From the IMG/VR virus record IMGVR_UViG_2648501143_000006: a DNA stretch of 20,639 bases. One strand, 5' to 3'. The stretch is from a virus. Taxonomy: Duplodnaviria > Heunggongvirae > Uroviricota > Caudoviricetes. This document shows positions 1,009 to 4,060 of this stretch, piece by piece (position 1 is the first letter of the stretch; each line of letters opens with the position of its first letter). Below the pieces are notes generated by a model. The model saw only the letters and a list, made by a program, of their open reading frames with translations, made no database searches and was not told the origin of the DNA. The position numbers were made by a program, and so were the translations under genes.

Positions 1009-1110
1009 TGCGCGCGCGTATTGCTCGTGAAATTGCTGTACCCAATAGTGATGTCCGAAAAAACCTCCGTTCTCACATGAAACAGCCATATGCAACTGGT
1101 AACTGAACAG
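1009..1110 (+). repeat. Copy 1 of a diverged ~100-bp direct repeat family (GCGCGCGTAYTKGTC...GAAATTG...GTGAT...GAAAAA...CACAT...ATATGC)
   Basis: Aligns by eye at roughly 70% identity with 3952..4060, starting with an identical CGCGCGCGTA decamer; same orientation. Confidence 0.5.
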
Positions 1111-1214
1111 ACTGGTAGACCGTTCGTTCAGTAAATACCTGATATTTTCGCCAACGAGAAATTGCGTTGGCTGGCAGGGTGCAAATTTGCACGATGGACT
1201 AACCCATTGATTCT

Positions 1215-1235
1215 TTCGAAAACCCCCATTGGGGG
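1215..1235 (-). terminator. Putative terminator downstream of the PerC-like gene
   Basis: CCCCC-ATT-GGGGG hairpin (1223-1235); minus strand reads stem then TTTTCGAA; about 115 nt downstream of the stop at 1352. Confidence 0.35.
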
Positions 1236-1351
1236 AAAAGCCTAACCCATTGGTTTTCCCACAATCCTCAATTTGAGGAATGTACCTAAAACCATTTTTA
1301 TAGCTCCGATCCCTTCAAAGTGAGGGGTAATTTGCCAAAACAGAGAGAGCA

Positions 1352-1639
1352 TTACTGTCTCTGGCAATCTTTATCGCGATAACGCCTGAAGTACCCTCTA
1401 GCTTCCTCATCCATACCAAGAGCCGAATGAGTCCGCTTAACTGCCTGTCTTAAATCTCCGAATCTGTCTGTAGTTGCTGGTGGGCGTGCCGCCTTACGGA
1501 TACATTCAGAGCGTCTGTTTGCTGCATGTTCACGTTCTTTATCGCCATCTGCCAGCATCATGACTTCTGCCCATCGTGCGGCAGCTCTCCGGTATAGCCC
1601 TTTTGACTCCAGCTCTTCAGCTTTCCTGTCCCTTATCAT
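1352..1639 (-). CDS. PerC-family transcriptional regulator-like protein (95 aa)
   Basis: MIRDRKAEELESKGLYRRAAARWAEVM... N-terminus resembles the PerC/Pch family (recognition from memory); GAGAGG Shine-Dalgarno upstream of the ATG at 1639. Confidence 0.55.
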   Translation of the reverse strand: MIRDRKAEELESKGLYRRAAARWAEVMMLADGDKEREHAANRRSECIRKAARPPATTDRFGDLRQAVKRTHSALGMDEEARGYFRRYRDKDCQRQ

Positions 1640-1674
1640 TTCTGCCTCTCAGATTATATAGATAAGCAAAAAGG

Positions 1675-1797
1675 TGTTGGTTCAGTTGGTTCAATTTGTA
1701 AAGATCGTTGTTTTTATTATATTTTTTCTAAAATATTGAACCAACATCAACTCATTTTGAACCAACACAGCCCAGCTCTGAACCAACAACACAGCGA
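1675..1797. promoter_or_regulatory. Operator-like array of five TGAACCAAC repeats in the divergent PerC / RHH intergenic region
   Basis: Inverted copies GTGTTGGTTCA (1675-1684) and GTTGGTTCAA (1685-1694); direct copies TGAACCAACA at 1738, 1759 and 1779, spaced 21 and 20 bp apart (two helical turns). Confidence 0.5.
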
Positions 1798-1840
1798 TAG
1801 CTTTGTGATTGGTCCGTTATTTTCTGGCTGATATTTGAGC

Positions 1841-1870
1841 GTATAACAGTGTTATACAGTGGTATACTGT
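1841..1870 (+). promoter_or_regulatory. Three tandem 10-bp repeats (GTATAACAGT / GTTATACAGT / GGTATACTGT) just upstream of the RHH gene; candidate operator and -10 region
   Basis: Exact 10-bp periodicity with palindromic ACAGT/ACTGT cores; ends 20 bp before the ATG at 1890. Confidence 0.45.
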
Positions 1871-1889
1871 ATGGATATTACTCACTGAT

Positions 1890-2333
1890 ATGGTCTTTGC
1901 AATGAGCAAATCTAATCTGGTCGCGTTCCGCATCCCATCTGAATTGCAGGATGAGTTTAATCGGTCTGTTCTCGCTTCTGGAGGGGATAAAACCTCCTGG
2001 CTTGTTGATGCGATTCGCATGAAGCTGGGACAGCCGGAAAAGTCTATTGATTCACGAATGCTTGGGCTGGTGGAGCGCATGGAAAAAGCTGCTGCGTCGC
2101 TTATTGCCGGAAAGCCGAACATCCCACCAAAGCCATATAACGAAACGGCAGTTATAAAGATCATTGCCGATACCATCCGACAGGGATTTGATAATGGGCG
2201 TGTGATAGCGGAACGGCTCAATGAAGCAGGCTATCAAACAAAAGCTGGTAAAGCATGGGATAAAGACATTTACAGCGCGTGGAAGCGTCAGGGAAGCAAT
2301 GCTGAAAAGTTATCAGTGGCTCTAAGAATGTAG
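1890..2333 (+). CDS. Ribbon-helix-helix (Arc/Mnt/CopG-like) DNA-binding protein with a C-terminal domain of unknown function (147 aa; alternative start at 1902)
   Basis: N-terminal SNLVAFRIPSELQDEFNRSVLASGGDKTSWLVDAIRMKL fits the beta-strand / helix / helix RHH pattern; fold assignment is inference. Confidence 0.55.
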   Translation: MVFAMSKSNLVAFRIPSELQDEFNRSVLASGGDKTSWLVDAIRMKLGQPEKSIDSRMLGLVERMEKAAASLIAGKPNIPPKPYNETAVIKIIADTIRQGFDNGRVIAERLNEAGYQTKAGKAWDKDIYSAWKRQGSNAEKLSVALRM

Positions 2334-2349
2334 CCCTATATTTTGATTT

Positions 2350-2727
2350 TTAGACGTGCTTGGAGAACAGGTAGCGTGCCATCACTAAAACAATGCCAAA
2401 GACTTCAGCGAGGGTTCCCCCCATAAATAGGTTTATAACGAAATCACTAAAATGGAGCAGTTTTGCTCCAATAAGGACAAAAATCCCATTCATAACTAAT
2501 AGCTGGCCTATCAGAATGCCGATAAACCACCGAGCAAACATTTTTTTCAGTTTTGTGTCTGTTTTTAAATCTTTTGTTTTTGCACGCTGATGGGCTTTGG
2601 CTGGATCCTCATCATTTAGATGTGTGAGGGTTTTTGCTGATGGTGATGAGCCAGAGGCTGGTTCACCTCTGGCTTGTCTTGCCGCTTGCTTTAGTTTTTC
2701 AGATATAGCGTAAGATCTAGACGTCAT
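2350..2727 (-). CDS. Small membrane protein: charged N-terminal 60 aa plus two predicted C-terminal TM helices (125 aa)
   Basis: Hydrophobic segments WFIGILIGQLLVMNGIFVLIGA and FVINLFMGGTLAEVFGIVLVMARYLF; ATG at 2725-2727 lies 3 nt after the TGA stop (2731-2733) of the upstream peptidase gene. Confidence 0.7.
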   Translation of the reverse strand: MTSRSYAISEKLKQAARQARGEPASGSSPSAKTLTHLNDEDPAKAHQRAKTKDLKTDTKLKKMFARWFIGILIGQLLVMNGIFVLIGAKLLHFSDFVINLFMGGTLAEVFGIVLVMARYLFSKHV

Positions 2728-2730
2728 TAC

Positions 2731-3219
2731 TCATCGAAGCCCTAAATTCTTTAGGCGATAACGTATAGCATCATCGGATACACCAAAATAGGAAGCCATC
2801 ATTACTGGTGCATATCCTGCATTGTTGAGGCGTCGAACCTCTTTTTCTGGCATGAGAAGACATGCTGCAAAGTTATTGGCGAATATTTCTTCGCTGTCTA
2901 CACCTTGGCTTGCCAGTTTTCCGCGGTAATCAACAAACTCATATTCAAGTGGCTGACCGTTCTCAGTTCGTTTGACGTAATGCCCTAACTCATGCGCACA
3001 CGTAAATCGTTTGCGCACGTTACTATCATTACGATTGAGTATGATTACTGGATCTTGTTCTGGCTCTTTCAGCAATGCGCCTGAAACATCATCATCAAGC
3101 GTGGTTTCAACAACATCCAACCCTAACTCATTGGCAATCCATACTGGATCAACCGGGAATTTCCTATCGCCCCAGATATCTTTCAAGAGGGCATGTGCAG
3201 ATGTATTCGACATGTTCAC
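2731..3219 (-). CDS. ImmA/IrrE-family zinc metallopeptidase (COG2856 / Peptidase_M78-like), standalone (162 aa)
   Basis: HEXXH motif in FTCAHELGHYV followed by EIFANNFAACLLMPEKEV, the hallmark of this family; strong Shine-Dalgarno AAAGGAGGTGAAC before the ATG. Confidence 0.85.
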   Translation of the reverse strand: MNMSNTSAHALLKDIWGDRKFPVDPVWIANELGLDVVETTLDDDVSGALLKEPEQDPVIILNRNDSNVRKRFTCAHELGHYVKRTENGQPLEYEFVDYRGKLASQGVDSEEIFANNFAACLLMPEKEVRRLNNAGYAPVMMASYFGVSDDAIRYRLKNLGLR

Positions 3220-3666
3220 CTCCTTTGATTATGGTTAAATAGTCGAAATTTTCACCACTTCCCTTGTGGATATATTTACATATAAAAGGTAACTAGTCAC
3301 TAACCAACACAAATCTTTTTGAAGACAGATGGGGGGTGTTGAACGGTTTTTAAATGATTTCTTTGATTTTTAACAGCAATAAGGAGCATTTTTAATGAAA
3401 TTAGACGTTGATAATAACTTTTTGAGCAATCTTTACATATCATGGTAGCCTTCTATGCTGTTTTTCCAACTAAAAGATTGGCACATTTATCCGCTGGTAG
3501 TGGCGTTTTTTCGCCGCCAGCGCCTCTCTGGTTCCATTCCTTACATCTGTTCAAATTCAGCAACCCTTGCCGCGATCTTGCCGTTATCGAGAAGCTCTTT
3601 CGCTTTTCGGTTAATACTATCGGTCTTCATATTGCCAGCAGCATACGCCATCCGATAATTTCGATG

Positions 3667-3770
3667 CTACGCGCGCGTACTTGTCGCAAAATATCAGGCA
3701 AAGGCCAGATTCAGAACGTCGTGATAACCACCAGCACAACATGAGATGTCATGTAACGCGATTTATCACA
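3667..3770 (+). repeat. Copy 2 of the diverged direct repeat family
   Basis: CTACGCGCGCGTACTTGTCGCAAAAT... shares its 5' half with 3952..3985; the 3' half is more diverged. Further fragments at 3903-3925 and 4037-4057. Confidence 0.4.
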
Positions 3771-3951
3771 CCAGATACATGTGATTGGTGTACCCGCATA
3801 AAACATCGTCATAGCGCGTCCTGTGCGCATATACGCCGATAATCAACACATCACCACCACTCTGTCTCATGTAGAGAACACTTTTATGGTATCCCCCGCC
3901 ATCGTGCGCGTACTAGTCGGACGCAGTTGCAAAACTTTTTGCAACTGATAC

Positions 3952-4060
3952 CCCTCGCGCGCGTACTTGTCTCGAAATTGGTGTTTTGCTGTGGCAGTGA
4001 TATCAGAAAAATCTTCCTGTTTCACATAAAGCGGATATGCGCGTACTGTAACGACCCCAT
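3952..4060 (+). repeat. Copy 3 of the diverged direct repeat family, in the 5' region of the secreted-protein gene
   Basis: Aligned by eye to 1009..1110 at roughly 70% identity. Confidence 0.5.

Follow-up and report, generated by a model that had tools for sequence, protein, structure and literature searches.

EcCIMP1 of Escherichia coli MP1 is a phage-inducible chromosomal island (PICI) that is mobilised by the P22-like phage Kapi1, and its excision and transfer were shown upon induction of this helper (Pick, Stadel and Raivio 2025; PMC11773190). According to the same work, the island lacks a terminase gene, Kapi1 transduces it specifically, and the mechanism of its packaging is stated as unknown. 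Here we analysed a 20,639-nucleotide stretch of viral DNA, IMG/VR record IMGVR_UViG_2648501143_000006 (hereafter the window; positions refer to it unless another locus is named), which we identify from its gene content and flanks as the left end of an EcCIMP1-like PICI that measures ~19 kb and is integrated in the 3′ end of yicC. An earlier note on the window had described three diverged direct repeats of ~100 bp, referred to below as copies 1, 2 and 3 (1009–1110, 3667–3770 and 3952–4060), and had proposed antisense pairing between them. We found that the unit common to these copies is a short core that derives from the gene encoding the small terminase (TerS) of P22-like helper phages, and our tentative reading is that the repeats are scars of recombination at this gene.

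All three copies contain the decamer CGCGCGCGTA, starting at 1011, 3670 and 3956, in agreement with the common start that had been reported for them. Over the 20.6 kb of the window, the 9-mer GCGCGTAYT was found six times, each time on the + strand, where 0.42 occurrences were expected, and none of 100 shuffles of the window contained at least six. In pairwise local alignments with shuffle controls, copies 1 and 3 were homologous over ~90 bp (~1008–1093 versus 3953–4040; z = 13.7), and the homology was retained when the first 25 nt were removed (z = 10.3). The likeness of copy 2 to the other copies was limited to its first 23–25 nt, past which its alignment gave z = −1.0 with copy 1 and z = 0.1 with copy 3. 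The earlier description as three ~100-bp copies therefore applies to copies 1 and 3 but not to copy 2. The similarity survived the shuffle controls of these alignments, by which low-complexity GC noise is ruled out as its source. The true form of the family is a 23-nt core, CGCGCGCGTAYTKSTCNYRAAAT, which is present four to five times and is followed in two cases by a common tail of ~65 nt. Three elements had been overlooked: a mini copy of 16–20 nt at 3899–3918, a partial unit at 4037–4052, located 80 nt past the copy 3 core, and a degenerate second unit located 80 nt past the copy 1 core, in the same arrangement as at copy 3. The body of copy 1 (1034–1103, minus strand) is ~70% identical to that of copy 3 and ends in the degenerate start of this second unit, ATATGCAACTGGTAAC; the body of copy 3 together with the partial next unit, ATGCGCGTACTGTAAC, occupies 3979–4052 (minus strand).

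Translated from the minus strand, the core reads F-R-D-K-Y-A-R, which identifies it as the TerS hinge (Sf6/Kapi1 type) of P22-like helper phages. The Kapi1 protein reads ...STVFRWLAKHEDFRDKYAKATEARADSIFEE..., and the hinge motif F-R-D-K/Q-Y-A-K/R, which in TerS follows the DNA-binding domain, was matched by all three cores. The minus-strand reading is Q-F-H-E-Q-Y-A-R-A for the copy 1 core (1011–1033; CGCGCGCGTATTGCTCGTGAAAT on the + strand), F-C-D-K-Y-A-R for the copy 2 core (3670–3692; CGCGCGCGTACTTGTCGCAAAAT) and A-K-H-Q-F-R-D-K-Y-A-R for the copy 3 core (3956–3978; CGCGCGCGTACTTGTCTCGAAAT), the last to be compared with A-K-H-E-D-F-R-D-K-Y-A-K of Kapi1 TerS. A scan of IMG/VR with a 23-nt pattern retrieved 42 loci, 20 of which were unrelated to the window; in 15 of these 20, the pattern lay in Sf6-type terS genes and covered the same codons, in phages of 40–63% G+C. 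When the peptides of copy 3 (AKHQ-FRDKYAR), of copy 2 and of the core-less minus-strand stretch 3547–3666 were compared with the six-frame translation of the 39-kb Kapi1 genome, the top match was terS, in frame, and a reciprocal search of the whole window with TerS ranked the same places near the top. The copy 2 core has 14 contiguous bases in common with Kapi1 terS. In frameshift-tolerant alignments the similarity of the cores to TerS spanned only 12–16 residues around the hinge (z = 7.1 for copy 3 and 6.3 for copy 1).

A longer piece of the same gene adjoins copy 2. We aligned TerS residues 55–124 with the minus strand from 3666 to 3462 by a purpose-written frameshift-tolerant protein-to-DNA procedure, and obtained a score of 69, compared with 27.7 ± 4.0 (maximum 46) for 200 shuffles of the DNA, 30 for the reversed protein and 27 for the other strand. 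We therefore conclude that a decayed terS lies directly beside copy 2. This pseudogene (3462–3666, minus strand), of the Sf6/Kapi1 type, is interrupted by about four frameshifts and stop codons; it covers the oligomerisation core and the C-terminal R-K-W...Y-G-D-K region of the protein and is collinear with the hinge, while its own hinge (3640–3666) is decayed. No significant alignment with the N-terminal helix-turn-helix domain of TerS (G-R-P-S...R-W-L; residues 1–52, seven alleles) was found upstream of any core, and a profile of copies 1 and 3 searched with nhmmer against terS loci gave no matches.

The remnants do not amount to an intact terS of ~140 aa under purifying selection, as shown by the frameshifts, the stop codons and the pattern of variation. 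Among 15 sequence variants, the 24 variable sites of the open reading frame (ORF) at copy 3 were distributed 9/7/8 over the codon positions, and single-base insertions or deletions broke the frame. The absence of codon-position bias and these frame-breaking changes rule out a live gene at the repeats; the 78-aa minus-strand ORF (3867–4103) matched no Pfam or PHROG family, and the ORF at copy 1 returned only itself in a word-indexed protein search. A scan of genome contigs with the 23-nt pattern gave no enterobacterial matches and mostly hit short fragments in GC-rich genomes or in Neisseria, with 4 of 44 matches lying in full terS genes. At the Neisseria loci (L051, L061, L065, L067, L071–L073, L079, L081, L086 and L089 in our numbering), a short, isolated fragment encoding F-Q-D-Q-Y-A-R-A lies outside any terS gene; either a comparable relic of the terS hinge or a repeat proper to Neisseria may be present here.

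Copies 2 and 3 are embedded in a conserved non-coding block (3661–4166, + strand) of which the copy 2 core forms the left edge in its minimal extent. Among 5,426 complete E. coli genomes, 535 had the segment 3577/3661–4169 with 96–98% conservation; it lay at more than one integration site and both of its flanks were variable. Copy 1 is present in about 100 complete genomes. None of the GenBank phages had the block, tblastn and blastn searches of GenBank phages with the copies gave no matches, and an IMG/VR scan with a pattern derived from the body found only loci already bearing the block. Conservation was highest at 3973–4144, immediately upstream of the start codon of the next gene, and positions 3973–4039 were invariant across the 15 variants. 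The mini copy (3903–3918, minus strand; CGTGCGCGTACTAGTC) is variable among related islands, with 5 variable sites in 16 nt among the 15 variants. Between it and copy 3 lies a palindrome (3924–3947) with perfect 11-bp arms, CAGTTGCAAAA-ct-TTTTGCAACTG; the two central bases vary and the arms are almost invariant, a pattern that suggests a candidate hairpin or dimeric protein-binding site.

How might pieces of one phage gene have come to lie at several places in a satellite? In the terS genes of P22-like prophages (59 distinct sequences), synonymous diversity fell from a high level before codon 59 to a low level beyond it, and representative alleles were 76% identical in the 5′ part, 90–93% at the hinge and 92–98% in the 3′ part. 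This switch in identity marks the hinge as the joint for exchange of the TerS half that contains the DNA-binding domain. We favour the reading that the repeats are terS remnants in an EcCIMP1-like satellite, serving as recombination scars and short homology patches, and we hold it with somewhat less than even confidence. Repeated recombination in the hinge stretch, between helper phage and satellite as well as between satellites, would have made the cores, which may persist as patches of homology for the exchange of accessory segments, namely perC, the defence-like cargo and the cargo slot by gene 16. The sequences show how the repeats are built, that both the core and the pseudogene come from terS, that phage terS has a mosaic joint and that two island breakpoints lie on core edges; the making of the copies by recombination at the hinge, and a present role in exchange, are inferred from this. 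The first of these breakpoints is at 1035, immediately after the copy 1 core, where L003 and L016 part from the window; the second is at 3661, 9–11 nt from the copy 2 core, where divergence on the left side begins in L003, L009, L023, L025 and L047. Further cores lie downstream of perC within another flanking sequence (D-type; EcCIMP1, L005, L009 and L023) and, in other islands, upstream of isrK in the immunity leader (E-type; not found among the complete E. coli genomes). In all, the core is found in five unrelated flanking contexts with constant orientation. In the L003 flank, EcCIMP1 and the D- and E-type contexts, no terS similarity was detected beyond the core. The fallback offered in the earlier note, that the repeats might be module-boundary linkers or decayed duplications, came near the mark, since they are decayed duplicated pieces of a terminase gene and two of them lie at mosaic boundaries.

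Several observations weigh against reading the repeats as scars. Only those 2 of ~9 distinct breakpoints fall on cores, which would happen by chance with a probability of ~0.1; the two core-edge junctions fit recombination at the cores but are not statistically compelling. The cassette boundaries at 2312, 4167 and 4607 have no core. A stretch of 18–25 nt is short for RecA-type recombination, so that one has to invoke a phage recombinase or illegitimate joining. Pristine cores beside a pseudogene with a decayed hinge could indicate selection on the cores for another function. The terS similarities of single cores are short (12–16 aa) and not significant in a large database, and no resemblance to terS could be detected in the ~65-nt body common to copies 1 and 3, for which the reading offers no source.

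An apparent third junction at 3899 proved to be an IS66 insertion. In L018 an IS66-family element (~9245–9817) lies directly beside the mini copy, at the equivalent of window position 3898/3899, and insertions of IS66 and IS3 in the accessory region recur over several genomes, including those of the L015/H15 type.

A possible but more doubtful explanation is that the co-oriented hinge copies and the invariant tail of copy 3 make up a satellite packaging signal. The terS-derived pieces, either the cores or the core plus body of copies 1 and 3, would be a cis site for the Sf6-type TerS of the helper, permitting headful packaging of a satellite without terS; the fragments would have been kept as a TerS recognition site after the island lost its own small terminase. 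A satellite without a complete terminase must offer a cis site to the terminase of its helper, and terS-derived DNA is the obvious candidate. EcCIMP1, terminase-less and transduced by Kapi1 (PMC11773190), bears both the block and the cores, and the P22 pac site is located within terS (PMC9611059). In the island, the only DNA resembling Kapi1 terS is the hinge, TTTYGNGACAAGTACGCG. All copies are co-oriented, as an asymmetric pac site would be, the block occurs in no GenBank phage, and the body of copy 3 is invariant among the 15 variants. The Sf6 pac site is reported by Leavitt et al. (2013) to be in the part of terS that encodes the DNA-binding domain. A pac site in this exchangeable half would be expected upstream of the hinge, where no similarity was seen for any tested terS allele. 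The cores are no better conserved than the rest of the block, and the invariance of 3973–4144 is equally explained by a promoter or 5′ untranslated region of the cargo gene. The identity with Kapi1 terS is moreover limited to 17–18 nt, and the island cores read YAR(A/E) where Kapi1 has YAKA. Finally, in the metagenomic contig L035, possibly a chimera, the block is part of a Kapi1-like phage with a terS of its own.

This contig (IMGVR_UViG_3300045988_004969; locus 12761–13985) carries Kapi1-like genes from terminase to needle, 90% identical to those of Kapi1, joined to a gene 16 that is 98% identical to that of the island, after which follow the cargo slot, the block and an AlpA/Xis-like gene. 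It is either a true phage–satellite recombinant or an assembly chimera.

The right side of the block bears on a further, unlikely explanation, in which the block, copy 3 included, provides promoter and 5′ leader for an exchangeable cargo gene located by gene 16, copy 1 is a decayed duplicate of this leader that has lost its cargo, and the cores are passengers. In the window the leader is followed by a cargo gene (4164–4562, + strand) that starts with GTG and encodes a 132-aa signal-peptide protein, whereas L003, L004 and L005 have unrelated membrane proteins instead. Copy 3 lies 104–212 nt upstream of the GTG at 4164, and its reported position in the 5′ region of a secreted-protein gene is confirmed. 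Conservation of the block ends at the start codon, with breakpoints at 4167–4169, and the same leader, Shine–Dalgarno sequence and GTG precede three unrelated ORFs, one here and two elsewhere. The peak of conservation just 5′ of the start codon is as expected for a leader, and the best sigma-70-like site of the region (TTGCCA-16-GATAAT, 3632–3659) would initiate at the copy 2 core. This site is replaced, however, in L003-type islands, which diverge at 3661. The predicted structure of the leader RNA is ordinary (z = +0.35), and a scan of 600–4700 against Rfam 15 gave no covariance-model match at E ≤ 1. A leader function would also leave unexplained why other islands have cores in the immunity leader or past the end of perC.

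On the far side of the cargo slot (4090–4170 / 4562–4624), homology between islands returns at a sequence containing CCATCCATGG beside the stop codon of gene 16. The products of the slot, a periplasmic protein here and membrane proteins in other islands, are likely to be of the superinfection-exclusion type. In P22, sieA provides superinfection exclusion.

The antisense pairing originally proposed, in which a small minus-strand RNA from copy 1 would pair with the copy 3 leader, was not supported: no promoter was found for it, the terminator assigned to it belongs to yicC, and the pairing is not conserved. The terminator in question, a hairpin at 752–787 (minus strand), is real but not an orphan. 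Genomes without the island carry the same sequence and match the window up to 842, so that the hairpin is the ordinary, chromosomal terminator of yicC and lies outside the island. We also considered a modified version, in which the cargo leader on the + strand, bearing copies 2 and 3, is the target of the perC mRNA (minus strand), whose 3′ end contains the core or copy 1 and would pair with it; this version seems to us improbable. A core is located downstream of perC in two unrelated contexts, copy 1 in the window and the D-type flank in EcCIMP1, L005, L009 and L023, and no terminator is predicted between perC and copy 1. A promoter-like minus-strand site was not found in this interval (1110–1350), and the only plausible minus-strand transcript there would be read-through from perC. 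RNA duplex prediction, which the earlier note had suggested, gave a favourable energy of −93 kcal/mol, compared with −55 ± 5 for shuffles, but this value is explained by the homology of copies 1 and 3 alone, and the longest perfect run of pairing is 10 nt. The body of copy 1 is absent from L003, L016 and EcCIMP1; because these close relatives keep copy 3 without it, the long pairing is not conserved. The perC-proximal core showed no covariation with the cores of copies 2 and 3 across islands. The C4 and isrK RNAs of the island itself did not pair with the copies, and C4 paired with the isrK region as expected.

It is very improbable that the repeats are iterons of a replication origin or cis replication region for the island primase, comparable to ori and crr of P4: the satellite does have a TOPRIM/DUF927 primase and the repeats are co-oriented, but their spacings are irregular (233, 53 and 80 nt), no AT-rich tract is adjacent, a far more iteron-like cluster of CCACCTGTAC in direct and inverted copies lies at 9955–10058, nearer the primase module, and the terS origin accounts for the cores without iterons. 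This cluster, a dense array of direct and inverted CCACCTGTAC / GGTGGTACAGG repeats, is located in conserved non-coding DNA between the DUF2824 gene and a 245-aa ORF, where it may serve the island as replication origin or as operator.

Two other segments of the left arm deserve description. Downstream of perC, two tandem repeats of ~40 nt, CTAACCCATTG..., occupy 1199–1237 and 1242–1280 (extending to 1300). They resemble part of the Kapi1 anti-repressor gene (13227–13289 of Kapi1) in the opposite orientation, with 71–79% identity (E ~8e-6), by which we identify them as a further helper-gene fragment in non-coding DNA of the satellite. The segment 2313–3660, between the gene for a 147-aa protein and the conserved block, is variable: here it encodes ImmA/IrrE and a 125-aa membrane protein, in some islands an Abi-family protein, and in others it measures only ~350 bp. 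On this comparison the segment is read as a defence-type hotspot of EcCIMP1-like PICIs. It also contains a 17-codon ORF (3395–3448, + strand; MKLDVDNNFLSNLYISW) that has a good ribosome-binding site, AAGGAG; a terminator-like hairpin comes after it at 3491–3505 (+ strand).

The island setting itself was established from its ends and gene order. Bases 1–615 are chromosomal dinD. Island-free genomes match the window only to 842 and then continue directly into yicC, so that the first base of the island is 843, and the insertion measures ~19 kb in a 99% identical genome. The attachment-site core, ATATT(CT)GAATCTG, forms direct repeats at the two ends of the island and also occurs in the empty site. 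On the left (831–842; ATAT(TC)TGAATCTG) it has the form ATATTGAATCTG, whereas the right junction and the empty site have ATATTCTGAATCTG. Tandem integration, with copies of the attachment site between sub-elements, was rejected, as the core does not recur within the island. Two TATGTACAC repeats at 905–925 (+ strand) are likely to be arm-type sites of the integrase; ATGTACA/TATGTACAC repeats are also present in the integrase-proximal arm (L002, 19860–19925). The integrase gene (19380–20639, minus strand) lies at one end of the island, next to the attachment site, and is followed in order by an int-alpA RNA, an AlpA-type regulator, AntA/B, an ORF named Ash that overlies the Rfam C4 and isrK RNAs, the TOPRIM/DUF927 primase, P22-like gp14, gp7, gp20 and gp16, the small cargo gene, ImmA/IrrE and PerC. 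The island has the features of a PICI, with AlpA downstream of the integrase, a primase/helicase, a size of ~19 kb, and no capsid, tail or lysis genes.

Rfam matches in this part were the C4 antisense RNA (15971–16058, minus strand; 79 bits), isrK (16083–16159, minus strand; 65 bits) and int-alpA (19305–19371, minus strand; 54 bits). C4, whose loop pairs with the isrK region, and isrK itself are both contained in a 342-aa ORF that PGAP named 'Ash family protein'; this ORF may be largely an annotation artefact over the RNA genes and a short Icd-like ORF. At the chromosomal end, positions 1–243 (E. coli dinD) gave a 95% match to two GenBank records of 'Campylobacter phage', which probably contain E. 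coli DNA by contamination or misassembly.

EcCIMP1-like islands are common in E. coli, where the block alone is present in 535 of 5,426 complete genomes, and they carry defence-like and virulence-regulating cargo, yet they lack a terminase gene and have no known packaging mechanism (PMC11773190). The identity of the repeats as terS remnants removes a spurious lead towards antisense regulation and points to DNA exchange between satellite and helper at the same hinge where phage terS is mosaic. The cores and the block (3661–4089) also provide a small and specific set of sites in which to search for a satellite packaging signal. If such a signal were found there, it would explain how P22-like headful phages package an abundant, unclassifiable type of PICI; if the sites are only scars, they belong to ordinary genome archaeology.

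Boundary or linker sequences at module junctions are known from lambdoid phages (HK620 and related work) and are usually intergenic, between functional genes. Here, too, short conserved sequences coincide with some mosaic junctions (1035 and 3661), but they are a coding fragment of one specific gene, and most junctions of the region have no core. The phage antisense immunity RNAs (C4 of P1/P7, CI of P4 and sar of P22) have a counterpart in the C4/isrK pair of the island, and the repeats could pair if both strands were transcribed; in contrast to these systems, the C4/isrK loops do not target the repeats, neither a dedicated promoter nor a dedicated terminator was found for the repeats, and islands do not consistently keep the pairing partner. 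The cos sites carried by PICIs of the EcCICFT073 type (with Rpp) and by SaPIbov5 are helper packaging sites of demonstrated function; satellite-borne helper cos sites are reportedly the subject of work by Fillol-Salom in 2019. The situation is alike in that a satellite without a complete terminase needs a cis site for the helper terminase. It differs in that the helper is here a headful (pac) phage, that the similarity to the helper terS consists of ~18 nt and a decayed pseudogene, and that a role in pac recognition is only a candidate one.

As to the terS mosaic joint, P22-like phages are reported by Leavitt et al. (2013) to exchange only the DNA-binding-domain half of the gene. The core coincides with this joint, as it consists of the hinge codons F-R-D-K/Q-Y-A-K/R at which the alleles switch from 76% to 92–98% identity, whereas the satellite has several isolated, non-coding hinge copies with varied flanks and no intact terS. 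A close relative of the island is EcCIMP1; the repeats and the terS remnant go unmentioned in the available part of its description (PMC11773190). EcCIMP1 is inserted at a tRNA-Thr site, in contrast to the yicC 3′ end used here, and the integrases differ; the cargo also differs, here consisting of ImmA/IrrE and a secreted protein, and copy 1 replaces the D-type core downstream of perC. EcCIMP1 itself carries three cores, those of copies 2 and 3 and one just downstream of perC. The two islands have the same genes in the same order, including the integrase, AlpA, AntA/B, the C4/Icd region, the TOPRIM/DUF927 primase, DUF2824, the P22-like DNA-transfer proteins and PerC; their backbones are 95–98% identical, and the block (3577–4089) is 96% identical between them.

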